A stretch of 64,000 bases of DNA from Candidatus Dormiibacterota bacterium (lineage in GTDB: Bacteria > Chloroflexota > Dormibacteria > Aeolococcales > Aeolococcaceae), in NCBI GenBank assembly GCA_963718525.1, contig OY970355.1, forward strand, positions 1,608,025 through 1,672,024, read 5' to 3'. Position numbers and translations under genes: made by a program. The notes beneath the pieces are model-generated. The model made no database searches and was not told where the DNA came from. It worked only from the letters and a program-made list of their open reading frames with translations. Shown here piece by piece: positions 3,663 to 23,479 of this stretch; positions within the stretch are counted from its first letter, which is position 1; each line of letters begins with the position of its first letter.

Positions 3663-5796
3663 CGACGGCGAAGCCCGCGGCCATGGTGCCATCCCAAGGC
3701 GCCGAGGCGATCAGGCGCAGGTTGGGAAGGCGGGCGATGCAGCTCACGTTCCATGGAAACAGGGGCGAGGCGTCCCGCAGCGATCCGACGAATACCGCGT
3801 CTGCGCGGGTGACGGCTGCCTCCGCGGCTGCGGGATCGGTGCACGCATTCGCGAGCGCGGCCTCATAGGGGACGTCCAGCGCACCGAACGAATAGCCGTC
3901 GGGAACGAGGGGGGTGAGGTCGGTCAAGCCTGCCATCCACATGCCCGCATCATTGCCGCCATTGGTCAGGACGAGCGTCCCCTTGGGGAGTGTTTTGGAC
4001 ATGGATGACAGCACGCTCAGATCGGCCGGCGTCACCAGCGAACGTGTTGCCACCTCGTGCTTGTAAACGCCGACCTCGGTGGTCGCGCCAACCACGACCG
4101 CGACCAGCGCAATCATCCCCAGGACAGCGCCGGTGCCGTCAAGCTTCTGCGCCACGCCGCCGAACTTCGCTCGAATGGTGGCAGGAACGGTGACGCGACC
4201 CAACGCGCCCATCCACGCGACAACCAGCAGAATCGCGGTGACTCCCACCGCCGGAACCCACTGGCGAAAGTTGGCCATCTGATTGAACACTCCCAGCGGG
4301 TAGAGGACGACAGAGTTCGGCTCCCAGAAGTTGGTCCAGCCGGTTTCGAGCGGACGGCGGATGACGTAGACCAGCGCGGCGATCACCACTGCGCCGATCG
4401 AAACGCCGACCCAGATGCGGCGTGTCCGCGACAGCGACCGCACCACGTCGGCGAGTGCGAACAACCCAAATGCAAGCACCAGCGGTATGAGCCAGTACTG
4501 CACACCAAGAACCCGGTCCGTGTCACCCCAGGGATAGATCGCAACCCAGAGGCGATGCAGGTAGTGCAGGTAGAGGTCGTCGGCCATGATGAGAAAGAGC
4601 AGCACCTGTGCGACGAGCACCCAGAGCATCCTCCGACGGATGAGCATCGCGACAACCCCGACGCCATACAGCGCGAGAAACACAGGCCCGAGGAGGTCGG
4701 TTTGTGCGATGAGCACCAGGATGTGATGGGGCTTCAGCGGCGAATGGGCGGTCGCAACGACGTACTGCGCCGGCTGGGTGTGCGTAGCGGGTGGGAGCTT
4801 GGGAATCCGCGTCAGGACGGTCACGACCACGGCCCCCGCAAGCGCGGCGCCGAGTGCGATCGCGAGCCGGATGAAACCCGTCCGTTGCGAACCTCGAACC
4901 GCGTGGACCACAGCTATCGCAAGCAACCCGCATGCGACCACCAGAGCGGTGACCACCTCCAGCCCATGGATCACCCAGATTGACGTCGTGATCGCTCCAA
5001 GCAGGAGCGCGTTCTCCGTGGTACTTCGCCCGCGTATGACGCGCAGTGCCGCGACGATGAACGGAACGATGAGAGTCGAGTCGACGATCTCGGGAAAGCG
5101 TCCGATGATCGCCTGACCCGAGGGGAAGATCAGTCCGAGCGCGAAGAACGGAACGATCGCTGCGAGCGCCACCAACTCGGTGGCCTCCAGCGTGAGCAGG
5201 GTGAGCGACAGTGGGAGGACGACGAGGGTCGCGGTGACGATCGGCGCCATGGCACCGGCGGGCGACGGCGACCCGAGCCACGAGACAACCGCCGCCGTCG
5301 CCTCGAAGCCGGGCCGCGCTCGCACGTAATCGGACCCTTCGAGTGGGATCGGAAACAGCGGCAGCACATCATGCGTTCGCACGATGCTGTTGACGACAGC
5401 CGCGTGGGTCGGGGTATCCCAGTCGGGCGGCAGGACCTGTCCGTGCAACGCCCAGGCGAAGGTCGCGGCACCAATCACACCGACGGCGAGCGCTGGGATG
5501 GGGAGCCACCACGGGTGGGCCGGCGCGGCCTGTGGTTCGGTGCGCCGCCAGCGCCACAGAGCGGCGATGCCGAGCACCAGCAACGCCGGCAGGACGCTGA
5601 TGGCCTCGAAGGGGATGTGCACGTCGTGCAACACCAATCCGTACACGCCGATGACGCCCGCGGACAGTCCCGGGGCCATGAGCAGTCGCTGCCATGCCCG
5701 CCATGTCGGAGCAAGCAGCGTGACGAGCGCGAAGCCGGGGAGGAAAGCAACGGCCACCACCCCTGGCAGGGTTTGCGCGAAGTCCTGGAACGGCAA
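3655..5796 (-). CDS. large polytopic membrane protein, possible GT-C-fold glycosyltransferase, polymerase or oligosaccharyltransferase (family unassigned)
   Basis: 713 aa with a TTG start. By eye it has more than 12 hydrophobic helices and a soluble C-terminal domain of about 130 aa. It starts 12 nt after the stop of the initiating sugar transferase, so the two are probably co-transcribed. Confidence 0.75.
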   Translation of the reverse strand: MPFQDFAQTLPGVVAVAFLPGFALVTLLAPTWRAWQRLLMAPGLSAGVIGVYGLVLHDVHIPFEAISVLPALLVLGIAALWRWRRTEPQAAPAHPWWLPIPALAVGVIGAATFAWALHGQVLPPDWDTPTHAAVVNSIVRTHDVLPLFPIPLEGSDYVRARPGFEATAAVVSWLGSPSPAGAMAPIVTATLVVLPLSLTLLTLEATELVALAAIVPFFALGLIFPSGQAIIGRFPEIVDSTLIVPFIVAALRVIRGRSTTENALLLGAITTSIWVIHGLEVVTALVVACGLLAIAVVHAVRGSQRTGFIRLAIALGAALAGAVVVTVLTRIPKLPPATHTQPAQYVVATAHSPLKPHHILVLIAQTDLLGPVFLALYGVGVVAMLIRRRMLWVLVAQVLLFLIMADDLYLHYLHRLWVAIYPWGDTDRVLGVQYWLIPLVLAFGLFALADVVRSLSRTRRIWVGVSIGAVVIAALVYVIRRPLETGWTNFWEPNSVVLYPLGVFNQMANFRQWVPAVGVTAILLVVAWMGALGRVTVPATIRAKFGGVAQKLDGTGAVLGMIALVAVVVGATTEVGVYKHEVATRSLVTPADLSVLSSMSKTLPKGTLVLTNGGNDAGMWMAGLTDLTPLVPDGYSFGALDVPYEAALANACTDPAAAEAAVTRADAVFVGSLRDASPLFPWNVSCIARLPNLRLIASAPWDGTMAAGFAVVK

Positions 5797-5808: not shown

Positions 5809-7185
5809 TCAGCGGCCCTTGAGCGTGGCCACTGCAAAGACCGTGCGCGCCATGATGAGAAGGTCGAGAGCAACCGACTGTCGCTTGATGTAGTAAAGGT
5901 CGTACGAGAGCTTGATCGTGGATCCGCCAACATCGCCGGCATAGCCGTAGTTCACCTGCGCCCACCCTGTCAGGCCGGGACGCACCGACAGCCTCGTGTT
6001 GTAGTACGGGATGCTCTCGCGCAGCGTCTCGACGTACTGAGGTTGCTCGGGACGGGGACCCACCACGCTCATGTCGCCACGAAGGATGTTCCACGCCTGT
6101 GGCATCTCATCGAGATGCAGGCGGCGGAGCACCCCGCCGACCTTGGTGATGCGCGCATCATCTGCGGCGGTCCAGTGCAACTCCTCGCGAGTAGGAACGC
6201 GCATCGTTCGCAGTTTGACGATCTCGAAATGCCTGCCGAAATGGCCGACCCGGACCTGGCGGTGAAAGACCGGCCCGCGGTCCTCCATCGTGATCGCCAG
6301 CCAGACAAACGGCAGCAGGATCCCGAGCAGCACCAATCCGATCAGACCGGCGACGATGTCCACGACCCGCTTGAAAAGTGCGTACACGCGTGAGGTTTCC
6401 CCGCGCTGCTGCAACGAGAGCAGCCATGTCTGGCGGAGTCGCTCGACGAGGAGCCGACCCGTCAACTCCTCATACACGTCCGCGACCGATCGCACCACCA
6501 TTCCCCGGTCGTAGCACTCGACGAGCCCCTTGAAGAGGTCCGTGGGGAGGTCCTCCTCGGCTCCGAGCACGATCTGATCCGCTGCGCGTCGCGCCGCCGC
6601 CGTGGCCAGCAGCGTGCCTGCGTCCGGGTCGGCCGGATGGATGGTCCCGACCACGCGGTACAGCCCGGCCATCTGCGCGTCGACATCCGCCCAGACACGA
6701 TCGAGGATGTCTGCGTCGGCGACAAGGAGGATGCGCCCGGCAAAGATTGCTCGAGCGAACACGCGCCGGTAGAAGAGCCGCCAGCAGAGGATCGTGAGGG
6801 CGGCGACCGGAACCCAGATCAGGATCGTCGGGCGGGTCACCCCATAGGGCACTGCGAAGAACACCGCGAGCAGAGCAATCGTCTCGAGCGTCACGGTGGT
6901 TGCGACGACCCGGAAGATGCCGCGTACGCTGACGGCCGCGTGCAGATCGTAGGCATCGACCATCAGGGCGGCTGCGAGCCAGATCCCCGTGACGGTCCCG
7001 ACCCCGGCCCAGGGAATGGTCAGGGCGGCGTGCTGGATCGGCCCCGAGTGGAGGTTGAAGGCGAGAATCAGCGACGCCGCGACCAAAATGGAGTCGCCCG
7101 CTGCAAGGAGCAACTTCCGTTCAGAAGCGAGGATTCCCCGCCGGCCGGCCGCAACTGTGGCGCCCGGAACGTCCTGGGCGATCAT
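5809..7185 (-). CDS. undecaprenyl-phosphate sugar phosphotransferase (WbaP/CpsE-type initiating enzyme)
   Basis: 458 aa from ATG 7183-7185. N-terminal TM helices. C-terminal bacterial sugar transferase block GPVFHRQVRVGHFGRHFEIVKLRTM...DEMPQAWNILRGDMSVVGPRPE. The track ORF 5809-8388 is an artefactual extension that overlaps the opposite-strand GT2. Confidence 0.9.
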   Translation of the reverse strand: MIAQDVPGATVAAGRRGILASERKLLLAAGDSILVAASLILAFNLHSGPIQHAALTIPWAGVGTVTGIWLAAALMVDAYDLHAAVSVRGIFRVVATTVTLETIALLAVFFAVPYGVTRPTILIWVPVAALTILCWRLFYRRVFARAIFAGRILLVADADILDRVWADVDAQMAGLYRVVGTIHPADPDAGTLLATAAARRAADQIVLGAEEDLPTDLFKGLVECYDRGMVVRSVADVYEELTGRLLVERLRQTWLLSLQQRGETSRVYALFKRVVDIVAGLIGLVLLGILLPFVWLAITMEDRGPVFHRQVRVGHFGRHFEIVKLRTMRVPTREELHWTAADDARITKVGGVLRRLHLDEMPQAWNILRGDMSVVGPRPEQPQYVETLRESIPYYNTRLSVRPGLTGWAQVNYGYAGDVGGSTIKLSYDLYYIKRQSVALDLLIMARTVFAVATLKGR

Positions 7186-7254
7186 CGAAGCTAGCCTACA
7201 CGCTGAAGCTCCGCTCAACACCGGCGGACGAGACGGTACCGTGCCGGAGACACG

Positions 7255-8316
7255 ATGACTCCCACGAGTGCGCCGCCCGTGCCCGACGCCCCCTTCGTGA
7301 GCGTGGTCCTCCCGGTTCTCAACGAGGAGCGCTTCATCGAGGCGTGTCTGACCTCGGTGCTCACCCAGGACTATCCGCCCGATCGGTACGAGGTGATCGT
7401 CGCGGATGGTGGTTCGACTGATCGAACTCGAGAGATCGTTGCCGCCATCGCTGCACGAGACGCTCGGGTGCGCCTCATCGACAATCCGGGCCGGATGCAA
7501 GCCGCGGGGTTGAACCGAGCCATCGCAGCGAGCAGCGGCGACATCATCGCGCGTCAGGACGGTCACGCCGAATGGGCCTCTGATCACCTGCGCCGATCGG
7601 TGGCACTGCTGCTCGCGACCGGCGCCGACAACGTGGGCGGGCGCCAGGAAGCGATCGGCGACGGGGCGTCCGAACGTGCAATCGCACACGCGATGGGCTC
7701 GCCATTCGGCGTCGGCGGCGCTCGCTTCCGGTACTCGGAGGAGGAGGAGGAGATGCCGACCGTCTTCCTCGGCACGTTCCGCCGCAGTGCCTTCGAGCGA
7801 GTCGGTCTCTTTGACGAGGCGTACCCGCCGCACGAGGATTACGAGCTCAACGAACGCATCCGGTCGACGGGTGGTCGGATCATCTTCAGCCCGGAGATCC
7901 GAACTCGGTACCACGTACGCAGCGGGCTCACGGCCCTGGGCCGCCAGTACTACCGGTACGGGCGCGGCAAGGTGCGGGTGGCTCGCGCAAGCCCGGGCGT
8001 CATCCGTCCGTATCACCTGGCGGCACCGGCGCTGGTCCTGGCGATCCCGGTCATGGCCGCAATGGCGGTGACCGGTCAGGGTCGCCGTCTCGCCATCACG
8101 GGGGTCGGGGTCTACGCCACCGCCTGTGTGATCGCCGGCCAGCTGGCGGCTCGAACCGAGCCCCTCGGAGTACGCGCACGCACGTCCGCTGCCTTCGCGG
8201 TGATGCACGTCGGATGGGGATCGGGGTTCTGGGCGGGCGTCCTGGAGGGTGCCGCCGGCATTGCAACCGGTGGAGGCGCGCCGCCGAGCCTCGGCAGTCG
8301 CTCGGAAACGGCATAG
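7255..8316 (+). CDS. glycosyltransferase family 2 (membrane-anchored)
   Basis: 353 aa with a GGAGA SD. GT2 N-terminal pattern VSVVLPVLNEERFIEACLTSVLTQDYP...EVIVADGGSTD. Hydrophobic C-terminal third. Confidence 0.9.
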   Translation: MTPTSAPPVPDAPFVSVVLPVLNEERFIEACLTSVLTQDYPPDRYEVIVADGGSTDRTREIVAAIAARDARVRLIDNPGRMQAAGLNRAIAASSGDIIARQDGHAEWASDHLRRSVALLLATGADNVGGRQEAIGDGASERAIAHAMGSPFGVGGARFRYSEEEEEMPTVFLGTFRRSAFERVGLFDEAYPPHEDYELNERIRSTGGRIIFSPEIRTRYHVRSGLTALGRQYYRYGRGKVRVARASPGVIRPYHLAAPALVLAIPVMAAMAVTGQGRRLAITGVGVYATACVIAGQLAARTEPLGVRARTSAAFAVMHVGWGSGFWAGVLEGAAGIATGGGAPPSLGSRSETA

Positions 8317-8348
8317 GCCGGCGCCGCGACCCCGTATTGTTGGAGGCG

Positions 8349-9746
8349 ATGGCACCCAGCACCACGGCGTGGACGACGGATCGACCAAACCCGCTCTGCA
8401 TGGTGGGTGCCGGCTACGTCGGTCTCGTCACCGCCGCATGCCTGGCCGACGCCGGCGTCGACGTCAGGCTGCTGGATATCGATGCCGCCCGGCTCGACAT
8501 GCTCCGGAAGGGGAGGGCACCGATCCACGAGCCGATGCTCGACGAACTCCTCATGGAGGTCCTCGGAAACGGCAGGTTGGAGCTCCATCAGGATGCCGCG
8601 GTTGCCATGGACGGGGCTCAGATCATCATGCTCGCGGTCGGAACCCCGCCCCTGAGTGACGGCCGCGCGGACCTGACCCAGGTGCGCGCGGCGTTGAGTC
8701 AGGCGGTGCAGCACGCCGGCCCCGAGACGGTGATCGTGATCAAGAGCACGGTCCCGCCGGGCACCACGGCCTCGCTCCGAGCCCTCTGCCGCCGCAATGG
8801 GCGGAGCGTGCCCCTGGCGGTGTGCCCTGAGTTCCTCGCCGAGGGCAGCGCAGTGCGCGACTTCCGCCAGCCTCCGCAGGTGGTGATCGGTGGTGACGAT
8901 CACGACGCCTGCGAGCGCGTGGCGCGGCTCTTCGGCCATCTTGATGCCCCCATCCGGATCACCGACTCGACGAGCGCCGAGCTCATCAAATACGGGGTCA
9001 ACGCATTCCTCGCTTTGAAGATCTCGTTCATCAACGAGATGGCGCAGCTCTGCGAGTTCACCGGCGCCGACGTCAGCTCGGTGGCGGACGGGATCGGCAC
9101 CGACGAGCGCATCGGGCGTGCCTTCCTGGGCGCCGGCCTCGGTTTTGGGGGCTCGTGCTTCCCCAAGGACGTCCGCGCCCTCGACCAGGCGGCAAGCTAT
9201 CACGGGCAGAACTTCCAGCTGCTCCGCGCCGCGGTCGAGGTCAATCAGCAGGCGCGAAGCCGCTTCGTGGCCAAGATCCAGCGCGCGCTCAACGGCAAGC
9301 TCGCCAAACGCCGGATCGCAGTGCTCGGGCTGTCCTTCAAGCCCGGAACGGACGACGTCCGCCAGGCCGCCTCGATCGACGTCATCCGCCATCTCGAGGA
9401 CCTCGGCGCGTCGGTGGTGGCGAGCGACCCGGTGGCCATGGACAACGCGCGGCCGCTGCTCCCGCGTACCGAGCTGGTCGATGACCTCTATGCCTGCGTC
9501 ACCGGGGCAGACGCGGTGGTTGTGGTGACCGAGTGGCCGGAGTACGTCGGCCTTGACTGGGGCCGGGCGGCATCCCTCGTGCGGCGCCGGCTGGTCGTCG
9601 ACGGCCGGAATTGCCTGCCTGTGGATCAGCTGGTCGACCTCGGCTTCACCTACATCGGCGTCGGCCGGCCAATCCGTAAGCCGCGGGCGGTCCGGACCTC
9701 GAAGCCGGGTGCGACGCCCGAGGCGGAGCTCGTCGCCGTTCCATGA
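8349..9746 (+). CDS. ugd: UDP-glucose 6-dehydrogenase
   Basis: 465 aa from ATG 8349. Rossmann motif [19 protein letters not shown]. Catalytic-Cys context [12 protein letters not shown]. The 510-aa track ORF start lies inside the preceding GT2 gene. Confidence 0.9.
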
Positions 9747-10696
9747 CCTGGGCCCCATCGCGTGTCGTCGTGACCGGCGGCGCGGGATTCCTCGGGTCGC
9801 ACCTCGTCGACCGGCTGCTCGCCGCCGGCGCAGAGGTGATCTGTGTCGACAACCTGATCACCGGGAGCAGGCGCAACAACAGTCATCTCGTGGGAGATCC
9901 GCGCTTCTCGTTTCACGCCGAGGACGTCTCCGGCAGCTGGAGCGTCGACGGTCCGGTCGACGCGGTCCTCCATTTCGCCTCGCTTGCATCTCCCGTCGAT
10001 TACCTGCGCCATCCCCTGGAAACGCTGGAGGTGGGCACGCTCGGGACGCTGAACGCGCTTCGCATCGCCCAGGACAAGGGAGCTCGGTTCCTGCTCGCAT
10101 CCACCAGCGAGGTGTATGGCGACCCCCTCGTCCATCCCCAGCCCGAGACGTACTGGGGCAACGTCAACCCGGTGGGTCCGCGCAGCGTCTACGACGAGTC
10201 GAAGCGCGCTGCCGAAGCGTTTGCGATGGCATTCAGCCGTGCGCGCGGCGTCGAGGTACGCATCGCGCGCATCTTCAACACCTTTGGTCCACGAATGCGG
10301 GAGCAGGACGGTCGCGCCGTCCCGCAATTCGTGACGCAGGCGCTTGCGGGCACGCCGATCACGGTGTACGGCGATGGTTCGCAGACACGAAGCCTGTGTT
10401 ACGTCGACGACCTGATGGAGGGGTTGATGCGCCTCCTCGGCTCGGACTACCCGATGCCGGTCAACCTGGGCAATCCCCACGAGGTCACCATGCTCGAGCT
10501 CGCCGAGCTGGTGCGGGAGATATGCTCGAGCAAGTCGGTCATCGAGCTGCAGCCCCTGCCTGTGGACGATCCCAAACGACGCTGCCCCGACGTGACGGTG
10601 GCTCGGCGTGAGCTTGACTGGCAGGCGGCCGTCTCGCTCGACGACGGCCTGCGTCGCACGGTGTCGTGGTGGTGCGGCGAGCGCGTCCCCGACTGA
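9743..10696 (+). CDS. uxs: UDP-glucuronate decarboxylase (UDP-xylose synthase)
   Basis: 317 aa with an ATGA overlap to ugd. [19 protein letters not shown]...[10 protein letters not shown]...YDESKRAAE..., which is typical of the UXS/ArnA-C-terminal SDR type. Confidence 0.88.
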
Positions 10697-12682: not shown

Positions 12683-13489
12683 TCAGCCTGCCCTGCGCAG
12701 CACAAAGTGGGTCAGGTGCGCGGGGCGGCGCGACGGCTGCTTGTAGCTGCTCAGCCCGGTCCGAATCACCCGGTATGACCAGCGCGTCTGCCTGAACGCC
12801 GATCGCCACTGGTTGAACGAGTAGACGATGTCACCGAGATACGGGTCGTAGAGAATCCCACTGCTGGAGATGGACGGGGACCAGGCAACGTAGCGACCCC
12901 GAACGGATTTGAGCGCGATGTCCATGCCGATGCGAGTCATCTTGTACAGGTATCGACCGGTCTCGAGCGGGGTTTCATTGAGCAGCACCATCGCACCCGA
13001 CGGCTTGACAACGCGGCGGCATTCGTCAAGAACGTCGGTCAGGCGCGGGGCGTGGTGGAGCGCGGAGCTTGCGACGATCAGGTCGTAGGTTCCGTCCTCG
13101 ACGAGCAATGGCGTGAACAGGGCGCGGATGGGCCGGATCTTGGATGCGACGCCGCCCATTCGCTCGACCACACCCGGAAGCATCATCTCGAGATTGCTCC
13201 GGCTCGAATCGAGCGCATCGATGCTCGCAACCTCGTCGAATCTCGACAGGTACGCTGCGAGCCAGCCCGTGCCGGCCGCGAGGTCGAGCACACGGATTCC
13301 ATGCCCGCGCATCAGAGTTCGCCACGGCACGAATTCGAGTGCGTCGAGAAAGTTCCACTCGTGCGTGACGGCATTGACCTGCTTCTCCGGGTCGCTCCAT
13401 ACTTCGGCGTGTTGCGGATAGAAGCGTGCGATGGCTGTCTCCCAGCTGCTCGCTTCACTGTCGGCCTGTTGCGCTATCCAGTCATCCAC
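12683..13489 (-). CDS. class I SAM-dependent methyltransferase
   Basis: VLDLAAGTGWLAAYL...YDLIVASSALHHAPRLTDVLDECRRVVKPSGAMVLLNE. I prefer the GTG start at 13489, which has a GGAGGA 11 nt upstream. The ORF is open to ATG 13582, but that start would overlap the divergent gene and its first 31 codons have lower GC3. Confidence 0.75.
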   Translation of the reverse strand: MDDWIAQQADSEASSWETAIARFYPQHAEVWSDPEKQVNAVTHEWNFLDALEFVPWRTLMRGHGIRVLDLAAGTGWLAAYLSRFDEVASIDALDSSRSNLEMMLPGVVERMGGVASKIRPIRALFTPLLVEDGTYDLIVASSALHHAPRLTDVLDECRRVVKPSGAMVLLNETPLETGRYLYKMTRIGMDIALKSVRGRYVAWSPSISSSGILYDPYLGDIVYSFNQWRSAFRQTRWSYRVIRTGLSSYKQPSRRPAHLTHFVLRRAG

Positions 13490-13565
13490 CGATGCGTCGG
13501 TCCTCCATCGAGATGGCGACGAGCACGCACTGCGCCCGTTCGTTTTCAGGTTAGCATTCGATGCA

Positions 13566-15347
13566 ATGGCCGTACCCGCCATCTTCGTTCACGACGCTGG
13601 CGATTCCCGGCTCACGGATCCCGGAAGTGTGGTCGCGCTCACGGCGACAGCCTTCGAGGCATGCTGCCGCGCCGGCCGGACGCCTGCGGTGCTGGCTGAT
13701 TACACGCAGCAGCCCGAGCTCTGCCGCAATCCCGACGCGTATCAGCGCTGGCAGATGGACTGGCTTGTACGTCTCGATGAGGCCTGCGGGCTCGGCGGCG
13801 TTGCTCGCTCGTGCGCGCAGCTGATCGTGCCGTCGGTCAACTCACTAGTGGTGACCGCGCGAATGCTGGCGGAAGCAGTCGACGCGCTCGCGCCGGACTC
13901 GATCACATACGTGGGCAGGGTCGGTCCGGTGGAAGCGACCGGTTACCACAATGGCCATCTGCAGTTCTGGCCGAGCCTCGGCGACGTCCCACTTGCGAGC
14001 CGCCTGCTGCCGTTGATAGCCGCAGCCCGGGGGTTGCGCTTTACGGCGTCCTCGGCGGGGGTAGTGCAGCCCGCGGCAATATCGACGGCGCCGCTGGCCG
14101 CCCGCCTCCGCCGCGCGCTGTCGCGCTCGCTTGGACCGTATCGCCGCGTCTATCGCGCGCACGGCGGCGGACAAGCCGGTCGCACCACGACACTGATGAC
14201 GTGGTACGCGGGCTACGGTGCAGAGCAATTCGCGGCCGATGAGCACACCACCGGACGCGACACCGCGTTCATCACGCGAGGTGCCACGTCGTTCCGGATC
14301 CTCGACCCCGGACTCCCGCCGCACCACGCACCGAGTCGTCGCATCGATCTGACGGTCCGGCCCGTGAGCGAGATTGCTCCCGCAGCAGCGGCGTTGCTCG
14401 CTGAGCTGGACGAATGGACGGAAGTCCCCGGTGCCGCACGCTTGCTCACGACCCGGCTGGCGGTCTACCTGCAGGGCATCTGCGTCGCGGTGTCGCGTGC
14501 CGTGCCTCGAGTACGCCGAGAGTTCGCGCGTTTCCGAGTCAGCCGGCTCGCGGCCGCGAATCCGAGCTCGCCCGAGGAGTTTGCCTGCCTGATAGCAGCG
14601 AAATCCGCCGGCATCCCTCGCGTGCTGGTGCAGCACGGTGACCATCTCCTCTCGTACGCATCGTGGTTGGTCACGCAGACGGTGGACTTCGACGAGTTTG
14701 CGGCGAGTGACCCCACCATGGAGGAGGAGTTCAACGCGGCTGCGGGCCGCCTCGGTGTTGTTGCCCCGAGGGTGACGTACTACGCACCCCGGATCGCCTC
14801 GCTTCCCAAGGGGTCGCAGCCGCGACACGCTGCGTCGGAAGCTGGGCGAGCGATCTGCTATGTGCCCTCGTTTCTCCTCGGCAACTCGAGATACGTCGGA
14901 GGGTGCAATTTCGACGATGCCTGGTACCACCGCTGGCATCTCCAGATCCTCGACCTGATGTGCTCGAGACCCGATCTCCGATTCATCTGGAAGGGGCTGC
15001 CGTCGAGCGACCAGGCCGTCGATCCCATACCCGCGCTCATCGCCGAGCGCAACGCCAGCAACATCGTTTTCGAAACGCGCCCGTTCATTGAGGTCATCGG
15101 CGAGGTGGCCCGGGTCTTCACCAACTCTCTGAGCACTGCGTTGTACGAGACGGTGCACATGGGTAAGCCGTTGCTGGCATTGACGTTCACGCGCTTCTGC
15201 GTGATTCGACCGTCGGCGGCCGGGCGCTTCGCGCCGGTGCTCCGTGCGTGTGATACGGAGCAGGAGGCGCTTGCGCGGCTCACCGAGTTTCTGGACGCGG
15301 ACCCCGACGCGTGGACGCTCCCGAAGAGCAGCCTGACTATTCCTTGA
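13566..15347 (+). CDS. hypothetical protein; C-terminal half resembles GT-B TagF/KpsS-type transferases
   Basis: 593 aa from ATG 13566. Blocks RVLVQHGDHL, AICYVPSF, RFIWKGLP and VFTNSLSTALYETVHMGKPLLAL recall the WHG / YaPT / ...S.. E...GKP pattern of TagF and capsule-synthesis GT-B enzymes. I could not place it in a confident family. Confidence 0.65.
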   Translation: MAVPAIFVHDAGDSRLTDPGSVVALTATAFEACCRAGRTPAVLADYTQQPELCRNPDAYQRWQMDWLVRLDEACGLGGVARSCAQLIVPSVNSLVVTARMLAEAVDALAPDSITYVGRVGPVEATGYHNGHLQFWPSLGDVPLASRLLPLIAAARGLRFTASSAGVVQPAAISTAPLAARLRRALSRSLGPYRRVYRAHGGGQAGRTTTLMTWYAGYGAEQFAADEHTTGRDTAFITRGATSFRILDPGLPPHHAPSRRIDLTVRPVSEIAPAAAALLAELDEWTEVPGAARLLTTRLAVYLQGICVAVSRAVPRVRREFARFRVSRLAAANPSSPEEFACLIAAKSAGIPRVLVQHGDHLLSYASWLVTQTVDFDEFAASDPTMEEEFNAAAGRLGVVAPRVTYYAPRIASLPKGSQPRHAASEAGRAICYVPSFLLGNSRYVGGCNFDDAWYHRWHLQILDLMCSRPDLRFIWKGLPSSDQAVDPIPALIAERNASNIVFETRPFIEVIGEVARVFTNSLSTALYETVHMGKPLLALTFTRFCVIRPSAAGRFAPVLRACDTEQEALARLTEFLDADPDAWTLPKSSLTIP

Positions 15348-15867
15348 TCACGCGGAGCACGAATGTCAGCTCGTCGAGCGGAAGCAGTGACGAGACGTGC
15401 TGCTCGTAGCGTTCCGGCCAGCGGTTCGCGGCACGCGCCAGCATGCCGCGCATTCCCGTGGCCGGGAAACGCTCGTTGAACGTCGCGCGCTCCACCGAGA
15501 ATCGTGCGCTCGAATAACGGTACTGATTGAAGAAGACATGGCCCGGATCGAAGTACCCAAGCGAGTCGAGCGCAAAGGCATGGCGGTGGGTGGGATCGAC
15601 CGCGGCCCAGCGCGAGCGGAAGTACGGGACGTCGATGCGCACCAGACAACCGGGTTTGCCGATCCGGTGGATCTCCTCGAGGGTAGCGACAACGTTGTCG
15701 AGGTGCTCGAGCACATTGTCGAGATAGATCTCGTCGGCTGTTGATGCCTCGAAGGGATAGGGGCGAACATCGAGGTCGTGAATCACGTCGGCGCCGGAAG
15801 CCGGATTGATGTCGACCCCGATGGCGCCGGGCCGCTTCTTCGAGCCACAGCCGAGATCGAGAATCAT
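15337..15867 (-). CDS. class I SAM-dependent methyltransferase (small, Methyltransf_11-like)
   Basis: 176 aa. MILDLGCGSKKRPGAIGVD...DNVLEHLDNVVATLEEIHRIGKPGCLVRIDVP. Confidence 0.85.
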   Translation of the reverse strand: MILDLGCGSKKRPGAIGVDINPASGADVIHDLDVRPYPFEASTADEIYLDNVLEHLDNVVATLEEIHRIGKPGCLVRIDVPYFRSRWAAVDPTHRHAFALDSLGYFDPGHVFFNQYRYSSARFSVERATFNERFPATGMRGMLARAANRWPERYEQHVSSLLPLDELTFVLRVIKE

Positions 15868-15902
15868 TCGAGACCGCCGGTCACCGGGGCGGACTTGCCA
15901 TC

Positions 15903-16266
15903 ATGGCCGCCGATGAGCACTGCGGCGTGAACGGCGCGCACCGGCGTGCTGACGGCTCGGCGAGGATCCGGATCGGCTTCTACAGCCATGCTTCTCGCAT
16001 AGGCGGCGCTGAGACCTACGTTCGCGACGTGGTGCGCGGGATCGACACCGATGTCTTTGACGTACACGTCTTCGTTCCCCCATGGCGGGAGTTCATCGAT
16101 TTCCTGGGCATTCGTGAGCGGCGAGATCTGCACTTGCACGTGGTGAGGATAGTCGAGCCTGCAACCGCGTTTCCCGTACCGAGATCGGGAGCCGCTGTCG
16201 CGCCACGTCATCCCAGCTTCGGCACCGAGTTCGACTCCGTCGAGGATCCGCAGCCTCGCGCTTGCC
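15903..16266 (+). pseudogene. out-of-frame N-terminal segment of the downstream GT4 glycosyltransferase
   Basis: Frame-0 translation RIRIGFYSHASRIGGAETYVRDVVRGIDTDVFDVHVFV parallels the N-terminus of the paralogue (RVHYHTDCYWFGGSEIALLVHLKAAFEGGDVEPIFTY). The downstream GT4 ORF is in frame +1. Span 15903-17283 is 1381 nt (3n+1). Confidence 0.5.
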
Positions 16267-17283
16267 ATGCGTCTTCCGCCCTCGGCGTTGCGGCTCGGGC
16301 ACGATGCCCTGCGCTACGCGAGCCTCCCGGTGAACCGTCCCCGGCTCGAAGGCGCGTTCAAACGGTATGACCTGGACATCCTCCATGCCATCAACGGCGG
16401 CTATCCGGGAGCAACGAGCGCTCTCGCCGCGGTGCTTGCGGGGCGGACGACCGCCAGACACCGCATCATGACCGTCTGCAGTACGGCCATGCCCCGAAGC
16501 ATCCTGGAGCCGGTGGAGCGGCGCGTTGATCGAAGCCTGGCCGCCTCCCTCGACGCCGTGGTGGTACCGGCCGAACGGCCGGCAGGCGCGATGACGGCAC
16601 GCGGCTTTCCTCGAGAGATCATGGAGATCATCCCGTGGGGAGCGCGGTCCATCCCATACGACGTCGACGCCGATGCCCGCAGACGGCTGGGACTTCCGGA
16701 GACGGCACCGGTGATCGTCTGCCTGGCGAACTTCACTCCCACCAAGGGGCAGGCAGTGATCGTCGACGCGATGGCAGTCCTTACGGAGCGATTTCCCGGG
16801 ATCCGGGCGGTCCTTGCCGGGGATGGTCCCGAGCTGGCGGCCCTGCGCAAGCGCGCTGCCGCCCACGGGGTCGCAGGCAGCGTGCTGTTCCCCGGGTCCT
16901 TCAAGGAGCCATGGGATCTCCTCCGAGCGGCGGACGTGTTCGTGCTGGCCTCGGAGATCGAAGGCCTCCCGCTGGTGGTCCTCGAAGCCATGAGCCAGGG
17001 AGTGCCGGTCGTGGCGACGGACGTCGGCGGGATGCCTGAGGCAGTCATCGACGGCGTGACCGGGTTGCTCGTGTCACCTGGCGACCCGGCAGCCCTGGCC
17101 GCTGCGATCACAAGTATCCTGAGTGACCCCGCCGTGGCGTTGCGGATGCGACACGCCGCACTGGCTCGATTCGAGCAGCGATTCACCATGGAGCGAATGC
17201 TCGAATCTCACGCCGATCTCTACCACAGGCTCACGGGGAGCAGCGCCGGACCGCGGTCGCCGCGCCTAGACTGCCCCGGATGA
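16267..17283 (+). CDS. glycosyltransferase family 4 (lacks about 90 N-terminal residues in this frame)
   Basis: 338 aa. DILHAINGGYPGATSAL... and VLASEIEGLPLVVLEAMSQGVPVVATDVGGMPEAVIDGVTGLLVSPGD. Confidence 0.85.
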   Translation: MRLPPSALRLGHDALRYASLPVNRPRLEGAFKRYDLDILHAINGGYPGATSALAAVLAGRTTARHRIMTVCSTAMPRSILEPVERRVDRSLAASLDAVVVPAERPAGAMTARGFPREIMEIIPWGARSIPYDVDADARRRLGLPETAPVIVCLANFTPTKGQAVIVDAMAVLTERFPGIRAVLAGDGPELAALRKRAAAHGVAGSVLFPGSFKEPWDLLRAADVFVLASEIEGLPLVVLEAMSQGVPVVATDVGGMPEAVIDGVTGLLVSPGDPAALAAAITSILSDPAVALRMRHAALARFEQRFTMERMLESHADLYHRLTGSSAGPRSPRLDCPG

Positions 17284-18129: not shown

Positions 18130-19146
18130 TCAGGAGGTCAGGATCTCGCTCGGAGCGGTCGCGCGGCCACGCAGCGTCTTGGAGTATGCGTCGGCGGTGA
18201 GCGCGAGCCCGCGGGCAAAGTCGGTCGGTTCATAGGGCATGAATGACCTCAGCCGGGTGACATCGAGGATCACGCCACGCACATCGAAATCGCGCTGCGG
18301 GGCCCAGTCGATGTGCGCCGGCCTGCCGGCCGCGTCGCTGATCGCTCGCACGATCTCGAGAACGGTGAGACCACGCCCGGAGCCGAGGTTGACGACCCCG
18401 ACATCGAGTCCATCGAGGACGATTCGTGCCACGACATTCGCGACGTCGGCAACGAAGACGTAGTCGCGGAGCGCTGACCCGTCGCCGAAGATGCGAATCG
18501 GCATGTCCCGGCTGATTCGGTCGAGGAAGATCGCCACTGCCCCCTGATCCCTGTCGTGTGCCTGATTGGGGCCGTACACGTTGGCGCAGCGGACGACATG
18601 CAGGGTGGCACCCCACCTCCGCGCATACATCTGCGCGTAGCCTTCCGCAGCCAGATGTGATGCTCCGTACGGGGAGATCGGTCGCGTCGCATCCGATTCG
18701 CTCACCGGAAGACGGATGGGATCACCGTACACGGCGCCACCGGACGATATGTAGGTGAGCGAAACGTGGGGCCGGTCACGGAGCGCTTCCAGCACGGCGA
18801 GCAATGGCAGCAACATCCCCGTCGCCGCCTCGAGTGGATTCGCCTCGGCGGACGGAGGCGTGAGCCCGCCCGCGGCGAAGATGACGTGATCCACGTCGCG
18901 CATTGCGTCTGCGATGACGCCGGGTGCACGCGCATCAGCCACGACCATTCGGGCACCATCGGCGTTCCCGGCTTCCGTGCGCCACGTGCGTGAGCGGGTC
19001 AGCCCCGTGACGCTGACTCGCTCGGCGAGCAACGTGCTGCCGATGGAGGCGCCGAGGAAGCCCCAGCCGACGACCAGGACGCGCGGCGCGGCCTTCCCCG
19101 ATCCTGCCATCGGGGGAGTATAGCCTCGGCCCGTCAGGTGGTTCAC
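18130..19146 (-). CDS. NAD-dependent epimerase/dehydratase (extended SDR)
   Basis: 338 aa. The GTG start forms a GTGA overlap with the upstream GT2 stop. Rossmann motif VLVVGWGFLGASIG. The active-site region reads SPYGASHLAAE, so the usual YxxxK lysine is His here. Confidence 0.88.
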   Translation of the reverse strand: MNHLTGRGYTPPMAGSGKAAPRVLVVGWGFLGASIGSTLLAERVSVTGLTRSRTWRTEAGNADGARMVVADARAPGVIADAMRDVDHVIFAAGGLTPPSAEANPLEAATGMLLPLLAVLEALRDRPHVSLTYISSGGAVYGDPIRLPVSESDATRPISPYGASHLAAEGYAQMYARRWGATLHVVRCANVYGPNQAHDRDQGAVAIFLDRISRDMPIRIFGDGSALRDYVFVADVANVVARIVLDGLDVGVVNLGSGRGLTVLEIVRAISDAAGRPAHIDWAPQRDFDVRGVILDVTRLRSFMPYEPTDFARGLALTADAYSKTLRGRATAPSEILTS

Positions 19147-20111
19147 CGAACGGCGCCCGTTTCGGAAGAGTCCTCATCGCTATCGGTTGTCTCGGCGACG
19201 ACGTATGCCGGTCGTTCCATCAGACGGAAGTGCATGCGAGCCACGTACTCGCCCATGATGCCGAGGATCAGCAGCTGGACGCCCGAGAAGATGGCGATGA
19301 TCGATGCGAGAAACGGGAATCCCGGTACCGAGTTTCCACCGATGAAGAAACGGATCACCACGATAAGGAAGACGACGATCCCGAAGAGGGTGAACAGGAA
19401 ACCGACCATGCTGGCGACCCTGAGCGGGCGGCTGGTGAACCCCGTCATCATGTTGAGCGCGTGCTGCACGAGCCGTCCGAATGTGTAGTTCGATCGGCCT
19501 TCGGATCGAGGCTCCTGCCGCACGTCGATCGCCGCGAATCTCACGGTGGCCCAGGTCAGCAGCACGTCGACTGAGATGTCGGGGCTCTGAAACCGTTCGA
19601 ACGCCCGCCGAAGATCCGTACGGAAGACCCGAAACGAGCTCACGCTCCTCGCCGCCGGCGCTCCCATCGCCTCCTGCAGCGCGAACTTGGTCACGCGTGA
19701 GGCAGCTGATCGCCAGAGGCTGTGCCTCTCCGAGATCGGTGACCCGTACACGACATCGACGTCGTCGGTGAGCTCCTCCAAGAGCGCAGGAATCTCCTCG
19801 GGCGGATTCTGCAAATCGTCATCGAGCGTCACGATGATCTCGTAGCGCGCAGCCCGAATCCCCACCAGCAGCGCGTTGTGCTGACCGAAATTGCGCATGA
19901 GGCGCACCCCACGGACCCGGCTGTCAGCGTGCGCCGCCGAGGTGATCGCATCCCAGCTCCGGTCGGGACTGCCGTCATCGACGAGGATGATCTCGTGTGC
20001 CGGAGCGACGCTTTCGAGCACCGCGGTGAGACGCGGGATGAGCATCGGGAGCGACTTCTCGGAGCGGTGTACCGGAATCACGGCGGAGATTCCGGGAGCA
20101 AGCGGGGACAT
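19143..20111 (-). CDS. polyprenyl-phosphate glycosyltransferase, GT2 (ArnC/GtrB/DPM1-like)
   Basis: 322 aa from ATG 20109-20111. ISAVIPVHRSEKSLPMLIPRL...EIILVDDGSPD...RLMRNFGQHNALLVGIRAARYEIIVTLDDDLQNPPEEI. Two C-terminal TM helices and the GEYVARMH tail typical of this subfamily. Confidence 0.9.
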   Translation of the reverse strand: MSPLAPGISAVIPVHRSEKSLPMLIPRLTAVLESVAPAHEIILVDDGSPDRSWDAITSAAHADSRVRGVRLMRNFGQHNALLVGIRAARYEIIVTLDDDLQNPPEEIPALLEELTDDVDVVYGSPISERHSLWRSAASRVTKFALQEAMGAPAARSVSSFRVFRTDLRRAFERFQSPDISVDVLLTWATVRFAAIDVRQEPRSEGRSNYTFGRLVQHALNMMTGFTSRPLRVASMVGFLFTLFGIVVFLIVVIRFFIGGNSVPGFPFLASIIAIFSGVQLLILGIMGEYVARMHFRLMERPAYVVAETTDSDEDSSETGAVR

Positions 20112-20122
20112 CGGCACCGGTT

Positions 20123-20788
20123 CTAGCTCACCGCCACGATCGTGGCGTCCGGGTTCGTCAACACGATTCTGCCGAGGCGCAGCTGCGCTCGATCTGCATG
20201 GATGCAATCGTCGGGGTTGCACGCTTCGACGAAGACGTGCCGCTCCGAAAAAGCTGAGTAGTAGTAGTGGCGCCCGTCGGTCATGCCCGGATTGACCCAG
20301 TGGTTGCTGACAGCGAAGATCGTGTCCACCGGCGTATTGTCCTGCAACCAATTGAGCGCCACCACGAGCCCTTGGGTCAGGCCGCGCACCGCCTGAGGAT
20401 CAGGCTGGGTCACCGTGATCGGCTTGCCGGTCAAGACCCTCTCGACGGTCGAGACGAGTTGGATCGGTGAGGTCAGCAGACTTGCGGCCACAAGCGGAAT
20501 GAGTTCGAGCGCCACGACGCCCGAGAGCGGTGCGCGGCGAGCCCGCAGCGCGATCGCGCTGGCCACGATGAACAGCAGCCCGAGCAAGCCAAGCGCGGCA
20601 TATCGGACCAGCAGCCCGGCTGGATGCGCCAGCGTCGGCGCCGTCACGACGACCAGAATGATCAGGCAGATCAAGCCCGCCAAGAGCAGCAGGACGGTTC
20701 CGGCCGTCACGGAGATTGCTTTTCGGAGGCCGGTTCCGAAGCGCCGTTCGCGGAGGGCGCAGAACAGCGCTGCGCCTGGGATTAGCAC
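20123..20788 (-). CDS. hypothetical membrane protein (about 4 TM helices plus a C-terminal soluble domain)
   Basis: 221 aa if started at GTG 20786-20788. High GC3. The upstream part of the 297-aa track ORF looks non-coding and overlaps the flippase. Confidence 0.6.
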   Translation of the reverse strand: MLIPGAALFCALRERRFGTGLRKAISVTAGTVLLLLAGLICLIILVVVTAPTLAHPAGLLVRYAALGLLGLLFIVASAIALRARRAPLSGVVALELIPLVAASLLTSPIQLVSTVERVLTGKPITVTQPDPQAVRGLTQGLVVALNWLQDNTPVDTIFAVSNHWVNPGMTDGRHYYYSAFSERHVFVEACNPDDCIHADRAQLRLGRIVLTNPDATIVAVS

Positions 20789-20955
20789 AAACCGACCTCG
20801 TATCCCGTGAACCTCGCGATGTCCACGACGCCGACGCAGGACACGTCCCAGATAACGAGGACTACCAGCAGGACGAATATGAATGGCGCAAATCCGCGAC
20901 GCATCGTGGGAGTATTGCCCAAGGCTGGGCGCATCTCCTCGGAAGCGGTGCTCAT
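20782..20955 (-). CDS. small hypothetical membrane protein (57 aa, below the ORF-track cutoff)
   Basis: My translation is MSTASEEMRPALGNTPTMRRGFAPFIFVLLVVLVIWDVSCVGVVDIARFTGYEVGLC. GC3 is about 77 percent. Its ATG overlaps the flippase stop (ATGA), and its TAA overlaps the GTG of the next gene (GTGCTAA). Confidence 0.45.
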   Translation of the reverse strand: MSTASEEMRPALGNTPTMRRGFAPFIFVLLVVLVIWDVSCVGVVDIARFTGYEVGLC

Positions 20956-22472
20956 GCAACGGCGGGGACGTTAGCGCCTCGGCGCAGCAGCACGAGGGCG
21001 AGGAGTGCCCAAACAACCGCTGTGCCGGCGCATCGCAACAGGAGCGCGGCGACGTCGAGGTGGCCCGGACGCAAACCGCTCACCCCCATGTCGAGCACCA
21101 CGGTGACCGCGACGGCGACCAGCAGCACCAGCGTCATCTTCAGATACAGCGCACCGCGCTCGCGGACATGCCGATCCCAGATGTGCGGGGCGGCGGTCTC
21201 GAAGATGACCACTGCCACGAGGAACTGCACCCACACGTCATTCATCGCGACTGCCTGCGCGCCCCAACCGGTCCGCAGGGCGATCACGTTCGCGACAATG
21301 TTGACGACAAGTGCGCCGGTCCAGATGGACAGGTGCCGCTTCTGGCGATTCACCCGTTTCGAGTTGAGCACGAGCGAAGGGACGGTGGCGATGGGAAGGA
21401 GCAGGATGGTCAGCGCAAGGATGTCGAACAGGCGGATGGAGGGCGCGAAGCTCGGCGTGAACGCCATGACCAGCGGGGCAAATCCTGCCTGGCCAAGCCC
21501 GGCGATGGTCGCGGCGATGAGCGCCATCGCGATGGTGATTCGCTCGGCATGCCGAGCCCAGAGCGGTCCGCTCGCTCCGCGGCCGAGCTCGCGCCAGATG
21601 GTCGGCAGCAGGACCGCCTGGATACCGCCGATCGCGTTTGTGGCCACCGCGATGGGCGCGGCCGCGAACGTGTACAGGCCCAGCACGAACGACGACGACG
21701 CGATGGCGACCGACGAGCTGCCCACGAGGCGGTAGGCCCAGTAGACCTCCGCGAGCAGGCCGAGCGGGAATCCGACGCGCAGGAACGGGCGCGCAGCCCG
21801 CGTATCGAACGATGGTCGCAGTTGCAGGGGTGGGCGGAACACGAAGTAGATCGCGGCCGTCAGCAGGGATGCGAGCGCGGGCGCGACGAACATGCCGGGA
21901 GTTCCGATGGCTGCGACCAGCGCCACCAGCAGCACCGGCCCGAGGATCGCCTGCACCACGGCCACCTTGCCGACAACGTCGAATCGCGACCGGGCCGACC
22001 ACAGCGTGGAGAGGAAGCTGCTGCCGCTCGATGCGATCACCGCGACCGGCGCGAGGAAGAGCCCGAGCCGAAGCACCCCGGACGAAACGAAGAGCCCGAC
22101 AACCGCGAGTGCGATGCCGGGCAGCGCCGACACCACCAGCTCGAAGGAGAACCCGACGTTCTGGGCATGACGGGCCTCGCGCACCTCGCCGTGCGCGAGG
22201 TGGTCGATGACGGCGCGGATCGATCCCTCGAAGACCCCGCTGCGTATCAGCGTCGCATAGAGATAGATGAGCAGCACGAACTGGCCGTCGCCGTATCGAG
22301 ACGGTCCGAGCCAGTGCGCGGCAAGGAATCCCGCGCCGACGGCGAGCACCGAGCCGATCAGCGATGCTCCCGACAATCCCGAAGCGGAGCGCAGGATCCT
22401 CCGCAGACCGAGGCTCTCGAGCGGATCCGGCACGCCGGCCTCCACCGGGAGCTCGTCCGTGGTGGTCACCAT
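20952..22472 (-). CDS. polysaccharide flippase (Wzx/MOP family) with extra C-terminal helices
   Basis: 506 aa from ATG 22470-22472. A multi-helix protein with the usual Wzx-like layout. It overlaps the upstream GT2 stop by 7 nt. Confidence 0.85.
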   Translation of the reverse strand: MVTTTDELPVEAGVPDPLESLGLRRILRSASGLSGASLIGSVLAVGAGFLAAHWLGPSRYGDGQFVLLIYLYATLIRSGVFEGSIRAVIDHLAHGEVREARHAQNVGFSFELVVSALPGIALAVVGLFVSSGVLRLGLFLAPVAVIASSGSSFLSTLWSARSRFDVVGKVAVVQAILGPVLLVALVAAIGTPGMFVAPALASLLTAAIYFVFRPPLQLRPSFDTRAARPFLRVGFPLGLLAEVYWAYRLVGSSSVAIASSSFVLGLYTFAAAPIAVATNAIGGIQAVLLPTIWRELGRGASGPLWARHAERITIAMALIAATIAGLGQAGFAPLVMAFTPSFAPSIRLFDILALTILLLPIATVPSLVLNSKRVNRQKRHLSIWTGALVVNIVANVIALRTGWGAQAVAMNDVWVQFLVAVVIFETAAPHIWDRHVRERGALYLKMTLVLLVAVAVTVVLDMGVSGLRPGHLDVAALLLRCAGTAVVWALLALVLLRRGANVPAVA

Positions 22473-23479
22473 CGCCGCCGGCGCGTGGCATCGCCGATTC
22501 TCGCCGCCAGAGAGGGCGAGGCCAGGATGAGCGCTGCCTCGAGAACGAAGCGAGGCGATCCCGGCAGGCAAGCGAGCGCGGCGCCGCGCGCCTTCCACGG
22601 CCGGTTCGCCCGTGCATGCGCATAAGCCGCCGCCAGTGCCCTGCGGCGCCTCATCCAGCTGAGAGTCGCCGCCGCGACCTCCCGCTGCTGATCGTCACCG
22701 GCTTCCAGTACCGCGCGTTCGAGGACGCGCGAATACGTGTCGTAGATATCGGTGCGATGGCTGAGCCCTGTCGACTCCACCCGGTAGAGCAGGGTCGGCG
22801 CCGCGACCCCGTGCACTCTCAGGCCGGCCCGGATCATCCGTATCCACAGATCCCAGTCCTCCGCGCCCGAGACGCCGTCGCGAAAGCCGCCGGCGTCCTC
22901 ATATGCCGCGCGCGGAAAGAGCGCGCCGATCGAGACGAAGTTGTGCCGCAGGATGTCGAGCATCTGATGGTCAGGCGCCGGAATGGGAAAATGATCGTGC
23001 TGCGTCGCGCGACGCACGCCTTCGCCCGGATGCCATCTGAGCGCATCCGCGCACACTATTCCACCGAAGCGCGCCTGGAGTGCAGCCAGTGACGCGAGGT
23101 GATCGGGGAGCCAGACATCGTCGGCGTCGAGCAGTGCGATCAACGGCGTCTCGATGCGTGCGATCGCGGCGCGTCGCGCCGCAGCGGGGCCGGAGTTCCG
23201 CTCGAGGCGGACGACCTCGACCGGGAGCAGTCCCTGCCAGCGTCGGGCGAGCGCCGGCGTGTCGTCGTCGGAGTGATCGTCGCCGACCACAACGGCCGTG
23301 GGGGATAGCGTCTGAGCCGCGACTGATGCCAGCGCAGCGCCCAGCGTCCGCGTCGAGTTGTATGCGGGGATCACCACGGCGATGGGGCTGACGGGGCTCT
23401 GGGAGGCGATGCCGCCGGCGCGAGGCTGCCGTTGCGGCTCCGTCGTCACGGCCCCAGGGTACCCGTAGGAATCCGCCAT
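22466..23479 (-). CDS. glycosyltransferase family 2
   Basis: 337 aa. IAVVIPAYNSTRTLGAALASVAAQT...VVVGDDHSDDDT...LLDADDVWLPDHL. Confidence 0.9.
   Translation of the reverse strand: MADSYGYPGAVTTEPQRQPRAGGIASQSPVSPIAVVIPAYNSTRTLGAALASVAAQTLSPTAVVVGDDHSDDDTPALARRWQGLLPVEVVRLERNSGPAAARRAAIARIETPLIALLDADDVWLPDHLASLAALQARFGGIVCADALRWHPGEGVRRATQHDHFPIPAPDHQMLDILRHNFVSIGALFPRAAYEDAGGFRDGVSGAEDWDLWIRMIRAGLRVHGVAAPTLLYRVESTGLSHRTDIYDTYSRVLERAVLEAGDDQQREVAAATLSWMRRRRALAAAYAHARANRPWKARGAALACLPGSPRFVLEAALILASPSLAARIGDATRRRRW

Follow-up and report, generated by a model that had tools for sequence, protein, structure and literature searches.

Two short membrane-protein frames in a Dormibacterota surface-glycan island are remnants of one deleted gene for a putative GT-C glycosyltransferase

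We analyzed a stretch of 64,000 nt (hereafter, the window) from the genome of a Candidatus Dormiibacterota bacterium (GCA_963718525.1, contig OY970355.1, positions 1,608,025-1,672,024), which starts with a surface-glycan island of ~30 kb. The module under study is one part of this island and comprises genes for an extended short-chain dehydrogenase/reductase (SDR) and a GT2 glycosyltransferase, followed upstream by two short open reading frames (ORFs) and a wzx-like gene, all on the minus strand. The original prediction took the two ORFs for small membrane proteins of 57 and 221 aa and the locus for an Arn-like module, possibly a pathway to a polyprenyl-phosphate-linked pentose. We found that both frames exist, but that they are fragments of a single gene for a membrane protein of ~765 aa, which was destroyed here by a frameshift and two deletions, its intact core frame being gone; the module of this genome is thus broken. 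It is probable that the island module represents a lipid-sugar glycosylation system composed of a GT-C enzyme, a GT2 and an SDR, from which the GT-C has been deleted in this genome. By likeness to the Gtr, Pgf and PpgS/Rv3779 systems, we infer that the SDR would tailor a nucleotide sugar, that the GT2 would load this sugar from the nucleotide onto polyprenyl phosphate at the cytoplasmic face of the membrane, and that, after flipping, the GT-C would transfer it to an acceptor outside the membrane, where it would most likely form a side-branch of the glycan exported by Wzx. The most likely consequence of the lesions is the loss of a glycan decoration in this lineage, which would make it a natural glycan variant.

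The lesions were defined against the closest relative (L023, corresponding to genome G021), with ~95% nucleotide identity in the flanks; the large gap was placed by BLAST and local alignments. The 57-aa frame (20782-20955, minus strand) is the N-terminal remnant, equivalent to residues 1-57 of the intact protein, and its ATG overlaps the wzx stop codon, as it does in intact relatives. The 221-aa frame (20123-20788, minus strand) is the C-terminal remnant of the same gene and retains intact residues 56-75 and ~496-765, minus 51 aa. The two are parted by a -1 frameshift at 20789-20791, where the window reads TTT and the relatives read TTTT. The junction of the larger deletion lies at 20717-20737 and corresponds to L023 8069-9391, the gap amounting to 1323/1308 nt and the net deletion to 1308 nt. 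The second deletion, of 153 nt and in-frame, has its junction at 20202-20210, in the C-terminal extracytoplasmic domain. Both are flanked in the intact relative by 5-nt microhomologies, GGAAC at both ends of the larger deletion and CGATT at the smaller one.

Comparison with other genomes leads to the same picture. The 221-aa ORF has four database relatives only, each of them longer or clipped by a contig end; it matches just the C-terminal part of longer proteins, and a block of ~50 aa present in all four relatives is missing in the window. On a metagenome contig (L008), the homologous frame stays open up to the contig start. Among 24 congeneric genomes, 22 carry the homologue as an open frame of 750-860 aa, positioned exactly between wzx and the GT2 gene in an otherwise collinear island. 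When the intact protein was used as a tblastn query against the whole genome, we recovered only residues 1-57, 56-75 (in another frame) and 496-765; a second copy of the family was not found. Residues ~76-495 are lost; of the family's 87 invariant columns, 56 fall within the deleted stretch, and two more, P632 and Y683, have mutated in the surviving part. An identical allele is present in GCA_049584575.1 (99.95% identity over 20.7 kb, gap-free at the lesion sites) and in two Logan assemblies from separate sequencing runs, so the allele is real rather than a product of faulty assembly. Neither the 57-aa nor the 221-aa ORF matched anything in Pfam or NCBIfam, and a role for them as ArnE/F- or GtrA-like subunits was ruled out, since they are fragments of one deleted gene.

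As for the intact protein of ~765 aa, it likewise has no matches in Pfam and NCBIfam scans. We detected ~177 members of its family, all tagged "hypothetical" and almost all encoded by metagenome-assembled genomes (MAGs) named as Dormibacterota, with a few other labels, e.g., Saccharimonadales. In the AlphaFold2 model, which was computed from 36 sequences and is confident (pLDDT 82, pTM 0.86), a polytopic core of helices precedes a C-terminal extracytoplasmic domain of mixed alpha/beta structure. Searched against the PDB with Foldseek, the model yields only GT-C enzymes among its top 21 matches (DPY19, STT3/AglB/PglB, AftA, Pmt); 20 of them have E values from 3e-6 to 4e-4, the Pmt match has E 0.04, and the AftA match gives TM-scores of 0.41/0.50. 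On the strength of this model we accept the protein as a predicted member of the GT-C fold class. Alignments with hhalign revealed no relationship of its family to the DUF6541 protein or to the 638-aa ORF encoded in the same island (both described below). It apparently constitutes a previously unannotated, phylum-restricted GT-C family.

The GT2 gene itself (19143-20111, minus strand) is intact and encodes a protein of 322 aa matching PF00535 (E 2.5e-26). The prediction of a polyprenyl-phosphate GT2 with a C-terminal two-helix anchor proved well founded: residues 7-308 align end to end with residues 9-313 of ArnC (9bhc, E 1.3e-49) and with residues 28-328 of Synechocystis GtrB (5ekp, E 7.5e-38), both alignments cover the two C-terminal transmembrane helices, and the GT2 stretch TLDDDLQNPPEEIP, with the acidic DxD-type motif, matches ITLDADLQNPPEEIP of ArnC. 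At the same time, the protein reaches 190 bits with the NCBIfam ArnC model NF007986, whose equivalog cut-off is 529, 153 bits with the PgfS model (cut-off 500) and a weak 28 bits with the PpgS model. Since it matches over its full length but scores far under the equivalog cut-offs, we regard it as a predicted ArnC/GtrB-class polyprenyl-phosphate glycosyltransferase which is an orthologue of neither named enzyme. It is the sole full-length member of this class in the genome and is 98% identical to its G021 orthologue. Relative to L023, the ratio of nonsynonymous to synonymous substitution rates (dN/dS) is 0.20 for the GT2 gene, 0.22 for the SDR gene and 0.10-0.30 for neighboring island genes, pairwise values which are too coarse to register a recent relaxation.

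We found that the GT-C gene and ArnC-like GT2 genes, counted either as orthologues (74-98% identity) or as full-length paralogues (27-37%), go together in the genus. Both are present in 20 of the 24 congeners and both absent from two; the GT-C occurs alone in two fragmentary assemblies, and the GT2 alone in none, leaving the genome analyzed here as the only case of the GT2 without an intact GT-C. The two genes lie on the same contig within about 15 kb of each other in 17 of the 20 genomes that have both, and within about 1 kb in 12. The order of the intact module in congeners is wzx, the ~765-aa GT-C gene, the ArnC/GtrB-type GT2 gene and, in many genomes, a GalE-like SDR gene. The SDR was found in 13 of 30 congeners, adjoining the GT2 and/or GT-C gene wherever positions are known. 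It thus appears, from gene content, to be an optional third member of the module, as would be expected for the supplier of a particular nucleotide sugar. In congener G012, we observed frameshifted or fragmentary GT-C copies and a split ArnC-like GT2 gene (C9:13102-14173; C2:893895-894226; C14:2703-3634). Decay of the module has occurred more than once in the genus and, given the broken GT-C and GT2 copies of G012, the module turns over fast, which is usual for surface-glycan decorations.

In turn, the protein encoded at 3655-5796 (minus strand; 713 aa, PF20176), which the original prediction proposed as the GT-C of the pathway, has a different distribution. This polytopic DUF6541 protein does seem to have a GT-C fold: its AlphaFold2 model (pLDDT 68) matches ArnT (5f15, E 1.7e-4, the best match), AftA and PglB in Foldseek. 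It is not, however, the cognate GT-C of the module. DUF6541 proteins occur in 30 of 31 congeners, sometimes as 2-4 copies or fragments, and since they are also present in congeners without any ArnC-like GT2, they are not the specific partner of the GT2. Its gene adjoins that for the initiating phosphoglycosyl transferase; the protein is a core component of the island, where it would be a candidate for the polymerase, ligase or oligosaccharyltransferase.

The extended SDR was correctly recognized by the original prediction (18130-19146, or 18130-19110 from the start codon preferred here; minus strand; PF01370, E 1.6e-35), and appears GalE-like. The protein counts 326 aa from a conserved ATG at 19110 and 338 aa from a GTG at 19146; gene callers give 326 aa, and the frames of three orthologues cannot reach further upstream. 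The proposed translational coupling of the SDR and GT2 genes through a GTGA overlap requires the GTG, which is not conserved, whereas the orthologues start at the ATG, which lies 32 nt past the GT2 stop codon; the coupling is therefore not established. Among solved structures, the SDR scores highest with 4-epimerases of the GalE type, reaching 134 bits with T. maritima GalE (4zrm), 121 bits with T. thermophilus 2p5u and 113 bits with 6wjb, compared with about 70 bits for dTDP-glucose dehydratases and 65 bits for UDP-xylose synthase (UXS). Yet, the score with the GalE model TIGR01179 is 76.8 bits, below the cut-off of 262.3.

The active site of the SDR deviates from the canonical one in two places, at 18655-18669 (YxxxH) and 18991-19005 (G-L-T-R-S). 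The Ser and Tyr of the catalytic set are kept (S134/S135, Y160), but the Lys of YxxxK is replaced by His164, which is unchanged in eight orthologues, down to 60% identity. Among 150 representatives of the wider subfamily, the same position holds K in 117, R in 20 and H in four, with S, N or C in rare cases. Where beta-2 ends, G-L-T-R-S aligns to L-D-N of T. thermophilus GalE, so that the NAD-binding Asp is absent; the corresponding Arg51 is found in 113 of 138 subfamily representatives. An Arg at this site usually signals NADP(H), and an Asp is characteristic of NAD+-retaining epimerases. The SSGGAVYG block, read in light of the residues established as signatures of SDR dehydratases and decarboxylases, contains neither the 4,6-dehydratase Asp/Glu pair nor the decarboxylase Glu. 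It is possible, as far as motifs can tell, that the enzyme uses NADP(H) and is perhaps a reductase instead of an epimerase. The automatic label "UDP-glucose 4-epimerase" is in any case unsafe, because the canonical Lys and the NAD-binding Asp are missing; and no result favors a UDP-xylose 4-epimerase, the set of enzymes compared being one without a characterized member of that kind. The conserved combination of YxxxH and T-R-S is a small enzymological curiosity in its own right. A second copy of this SDR subfamily (62% identity) is located at G000:C1:1826954-1827865 of the same genome (L034 8870-9901), 155 kb past the window end, next to a Wzz/tyrosine-kinase-like gene and a DUF4012 gene; the gene caller gives it 226 aa only. 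Neither the GT-C nor an ArnC-like GT2 was found near this copy, so it does not mark a second module.

Several observations weigh against a module built around the ~765-aa GT-C and the GT2. The co-occurrence counts are uncorrected for phylogeny, and in three congeners the GT-C stands beside the SDR while the sole ArnC-like GT2 is a paralogue of 27-30% identity, located 12 kb off or on another contig. The Foldseek TM-scores are modest (0.25-0.41 by query), because of which a GT-C subclass cannot be assigned to the protein, and its best matches include oligosaccharyltransferases, enzymes which take pyrophosphate-linked glycans and not phosphate-linked monosaccharides. Moreover, the GT2 and SDR genes are undecayed (dN/dS ~0.2) and could still work for a different acceptor enzyme. 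Elsewhere, the genome has 12 PMT_2 GT-C genes, apart from the DUF6541 GT-C, and some of these PMT_2 genes adjoin GT2 genes of their own. Given the 12 further PMT_2-type genes, another enzyme may have come to use the lipid-linked sugar, and its present consumption by one of the many GT-C enzymes of the genome is the alternative to a lost decoration.

The same facts can be taken further. The ~765-aa GT-C may be an oligosaccharyltransferase, ligase or polymerase acting on the Wzx-flipped, pyrophosphate-linked glycan independently of the GT2, with the GT2 and SDR feeding another GT-C (of the PMT_2 or DUF6541 type) and remaining functional here. The overlap of its start codon with the wzx stop in relatives agrees with such a role, as do STT3, AglB and PglB among the top fold matches together with the C-terminal extracytoplasmic domain, the intactness of the GT2 and SDR genes (dN/dS ~0.2) and the abundance of other GT-C genes. 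What it leaves unexplained is the tight phyletic and positional linkage of the GT-C to ArnC-like GT2 genes. The near-universal DUF6541 GT-C, encoded next to the initiating transferase, would suit the role of a core ligase or polymerase better, and the loss of a core enzyme should drag the island into decay, whereas the other island genes compared with L023 are intact and under purifying selection (dN/dS 0.10-0.30). We consider this explanation rather unlikely, though less so than the remaining alternatives.

Readings that make the lipid-linked sugar a pentose fare worse. One would build on the unusual SDR, casting it as an NADPH-dependent 4-ketoreductase that converts a UDP-4-keto-pentose derived from UDP-glucuronic acid (UDP-GlcA) to UDP-L-arabinose, the precursor of a polyprenyl-phosphate-pentose donor, with the orphan lipid-linked sugar rerouted to another GT-C in what would be a natural knock-out; we give it little credence. 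The Arn-like pathway of the original prediction seems, if anything, slightly more doubtful still. It would have UDP-xylose (UDP-Xyl), or UDP-L-arabinose made by the SDR as a UDP-Xyl 4-epimerase, loaded by the GT2, flipped by the 57-aa and 221-aa proteins and transferred by the GT-C at 3655-5796. The island does hold genuine Ugd and Uxs enzymes, ArnC is the best solved match of the GT2, and ArnT is the best fold match of the 3655-5796 protein. Against this, the flippase part is refuted, the short ORFs being pieces of one deleted GT-C gene; the DUF6541 protein is found also in congeners without an ArnC-like GT2; the SDR resembles GalE-type enzymes more than any of the pentose enzymes compared, and lacks the canonical catalytic Lys; and the GT2 stays under the ArnC equivalog cut-off. 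The locus has no equivalents of ArnA, ArnB or ArnD, a statement which applies to the locus, as the genome was not searched for the formyltransferase, ArnB and ArnD. Of the Arn-like logic, then, the general GT2-to-GT-C lipid-sugar route stands in the intact relatives; the small subunits do not, and the ArnA/B/D steps are absent from the locus. There is no support for the lipid-linked sugar being a pentose, and no result separates pentose, hexose, N-acetylhexosamine (HexNAc) and uronic acid. Finally, that the 57-aa and 221-aa ORFs work as shortened, neo-functionalized membrane proteins still partnering the GT2 is highly improbable: both frames remain open with high GC content at third codon positions, and the middle piece of the remnant has a dN/dS of 0.29 relative to L023, but such pairwise values mainly record the time preceding the deletion, the N-terminal piece stands at 0.73, mutations have hit invariant residues, the catalytic core is lost, and the short form occurs in near-identical assemblies of the same population and in no other genome.

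The genome in which the island resides consists of one contig of 3.34 Mb with 67% GC, and homologues of the window proteins come near-exclusively from MAGs labeled Candidatus Dormibacterota, Dormibacteraeota or Dormibacteria, recovered from palsa, peat and soil. Upstream of the module, the Wzx of the original prediction can be retained as a Wzx-like flippase of the MOP family (20952-22598, minus strand), although the match to PF13440 is weak (24 bits vs. a cut-off of 23); the protein has 506 aa according to gene callers and 548 aa as the longest ORF, and is 95% identical to that of L023. The initiating phosphoglycosyl transferase is encoded at 5809-8388, adjoining the DUF6541 gene. The ugd and uxs genes (8214-10696, plus strand) also hold up as originally assigned. 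The longest ugd ORF starts at 8214, with homology beginning near residue 61, and its product matches the nucleotide-sugar dehydrogenase model TIGR03026 with 421 bits. The uxs product (9743-10696) scores 341 bits with human UXS1 structures and is 55-63% identical to annotated UXS genes; by these similarities it can be considered a genuine UDP-glucuronate decarboxylase of the UXS1 type, and the two enzymes would jointly supply UDP-GlcA and UDP-Xyl. Further island genes encode two GT4s, several methyltransferases, a second GT2, and a NeuB/GNAT/aminotransferase/cytidylyltransferase set typical of pseudaminic-acid synthesis.

Two other genes of the island deserve mention. A GT4 gene (15864-17283) is split by a 1-nt insertion at 16230 relative to GCA_049584575.1, which leaves an ORF of 338 aa in the window as compared to 459 aa in GCA_049584575.1 and 454 aa in L023. 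The insertion may distinguish the strains, or else stem from a homopolymer error in the window's assembly. The 638-aa ORF (13431-15347) has no Pfam or NCBIfam match and is conserved in congeners (59-86% identity), where it occupies the corresponding place in the island.

The attractive reading of two "micro-membrane subunits" is thus corrected, as both are gene wreckage. Overlapping strings of short ORFs in glycan islands should be compared with close relatives prior to being called subunits. In addition, the analysis defines an unannotated GT-C family of ~750 aa that is genomically coupled to ArnC/GtrB-type synthases. Our literature search on Dormibacterota envelope glycans found nothing, and the module provides a first handle on how surface glycans are decorated in an uncultured soil phylum, and on how quickly such decorations come and go.

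The locus is otherwise ordinary in kind, a known type of system degraded in this genome, and it can be set beside four characterized ones. The Arn pathway (ArnA-ArnT, lipid A aminoarabinose) shares with it ArnC, the best solved match of the GT2, and the general route from a UDP-sugar through an undecaprenyl-phosphate-linked sugar to transfer by a GT-C. In contrast to Arn, the locus has no ArnA formyltransferase/decarboxylase, ArnB, ArnD or ArnE/F; its Uxs is of the UXS1 type (341 bits) and reaches only about 85 bits with ArnA; the ~765-aa GT-C is not a member of the PMT_2/ArnT family; and the GT2 falls short of ArnC (190 vs. 529 bits). The Gtr systems (GtrA/GtrB/GtrC, O-antigen glucosylation) are closer: the match to GtrB spans the whole GT2, the gene for a serotype-specific GT-C lies alongside, and close relatives differ by gain, loss and pseudogenization of the module. 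The locus departs from Gtr in its additional SDR gene, in a GT-C family without sequence relationship to that of Gtr, and in lacking GtrA. A whole-genome search for GtrA (PF04138) gave a single match, at C1:203890-204219, 1.4 Mb away and fused to another GT2. There, the GtrA domain forms the C-terminus of a 525-aa GT2 frame (G000:C1:203170-204219) located near PMT_2 genes, and this fusion locus is a separate lipid-sugar system.

In the Pgf operon of S. mutans, the GT-A enzyme PgfS, the 4-epimerase PgfE and the GT-C proteins PgfM1/PgfM2 carry out protein glycosylation (PMC12041528). As in our module, a GtrB/ArnC-type GT2, a gene of the SDR epimerase family and a large, extracytoplasmically acting GT-C are united in one operon. 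Yet, PgfM1/PgfM2 belong to the YfhO family, whereas the GT-C family described here has no Pfam/NCBIfam match; the GT2 falls below the PgfS cut-off, the SDR has YxxxH and T-R-S, and the GT-C is deleted here. In mycobacteria, PpgS (Rv3631), Rv3632 and Rv3779 are responsible for galactosamine decoration of arabinogalactan, PpgS being a GT2 polyprenyl-phosphate-HexNAc synthase whose partner GT-C moves the sugar to the cell-wall polysaccharide (PMC3485146). The pairing of a GT2 with a GT-C is common to both; the differences are the score with the PpgS model (28 bits), the lack of an Rv3632-like small partner at our locus, another phylum and another GT-C family. Taken together, the architecture of the module matches the Gtr-, Pgf- and PpgS/Rv3779-type systems and not the Arn pathway.

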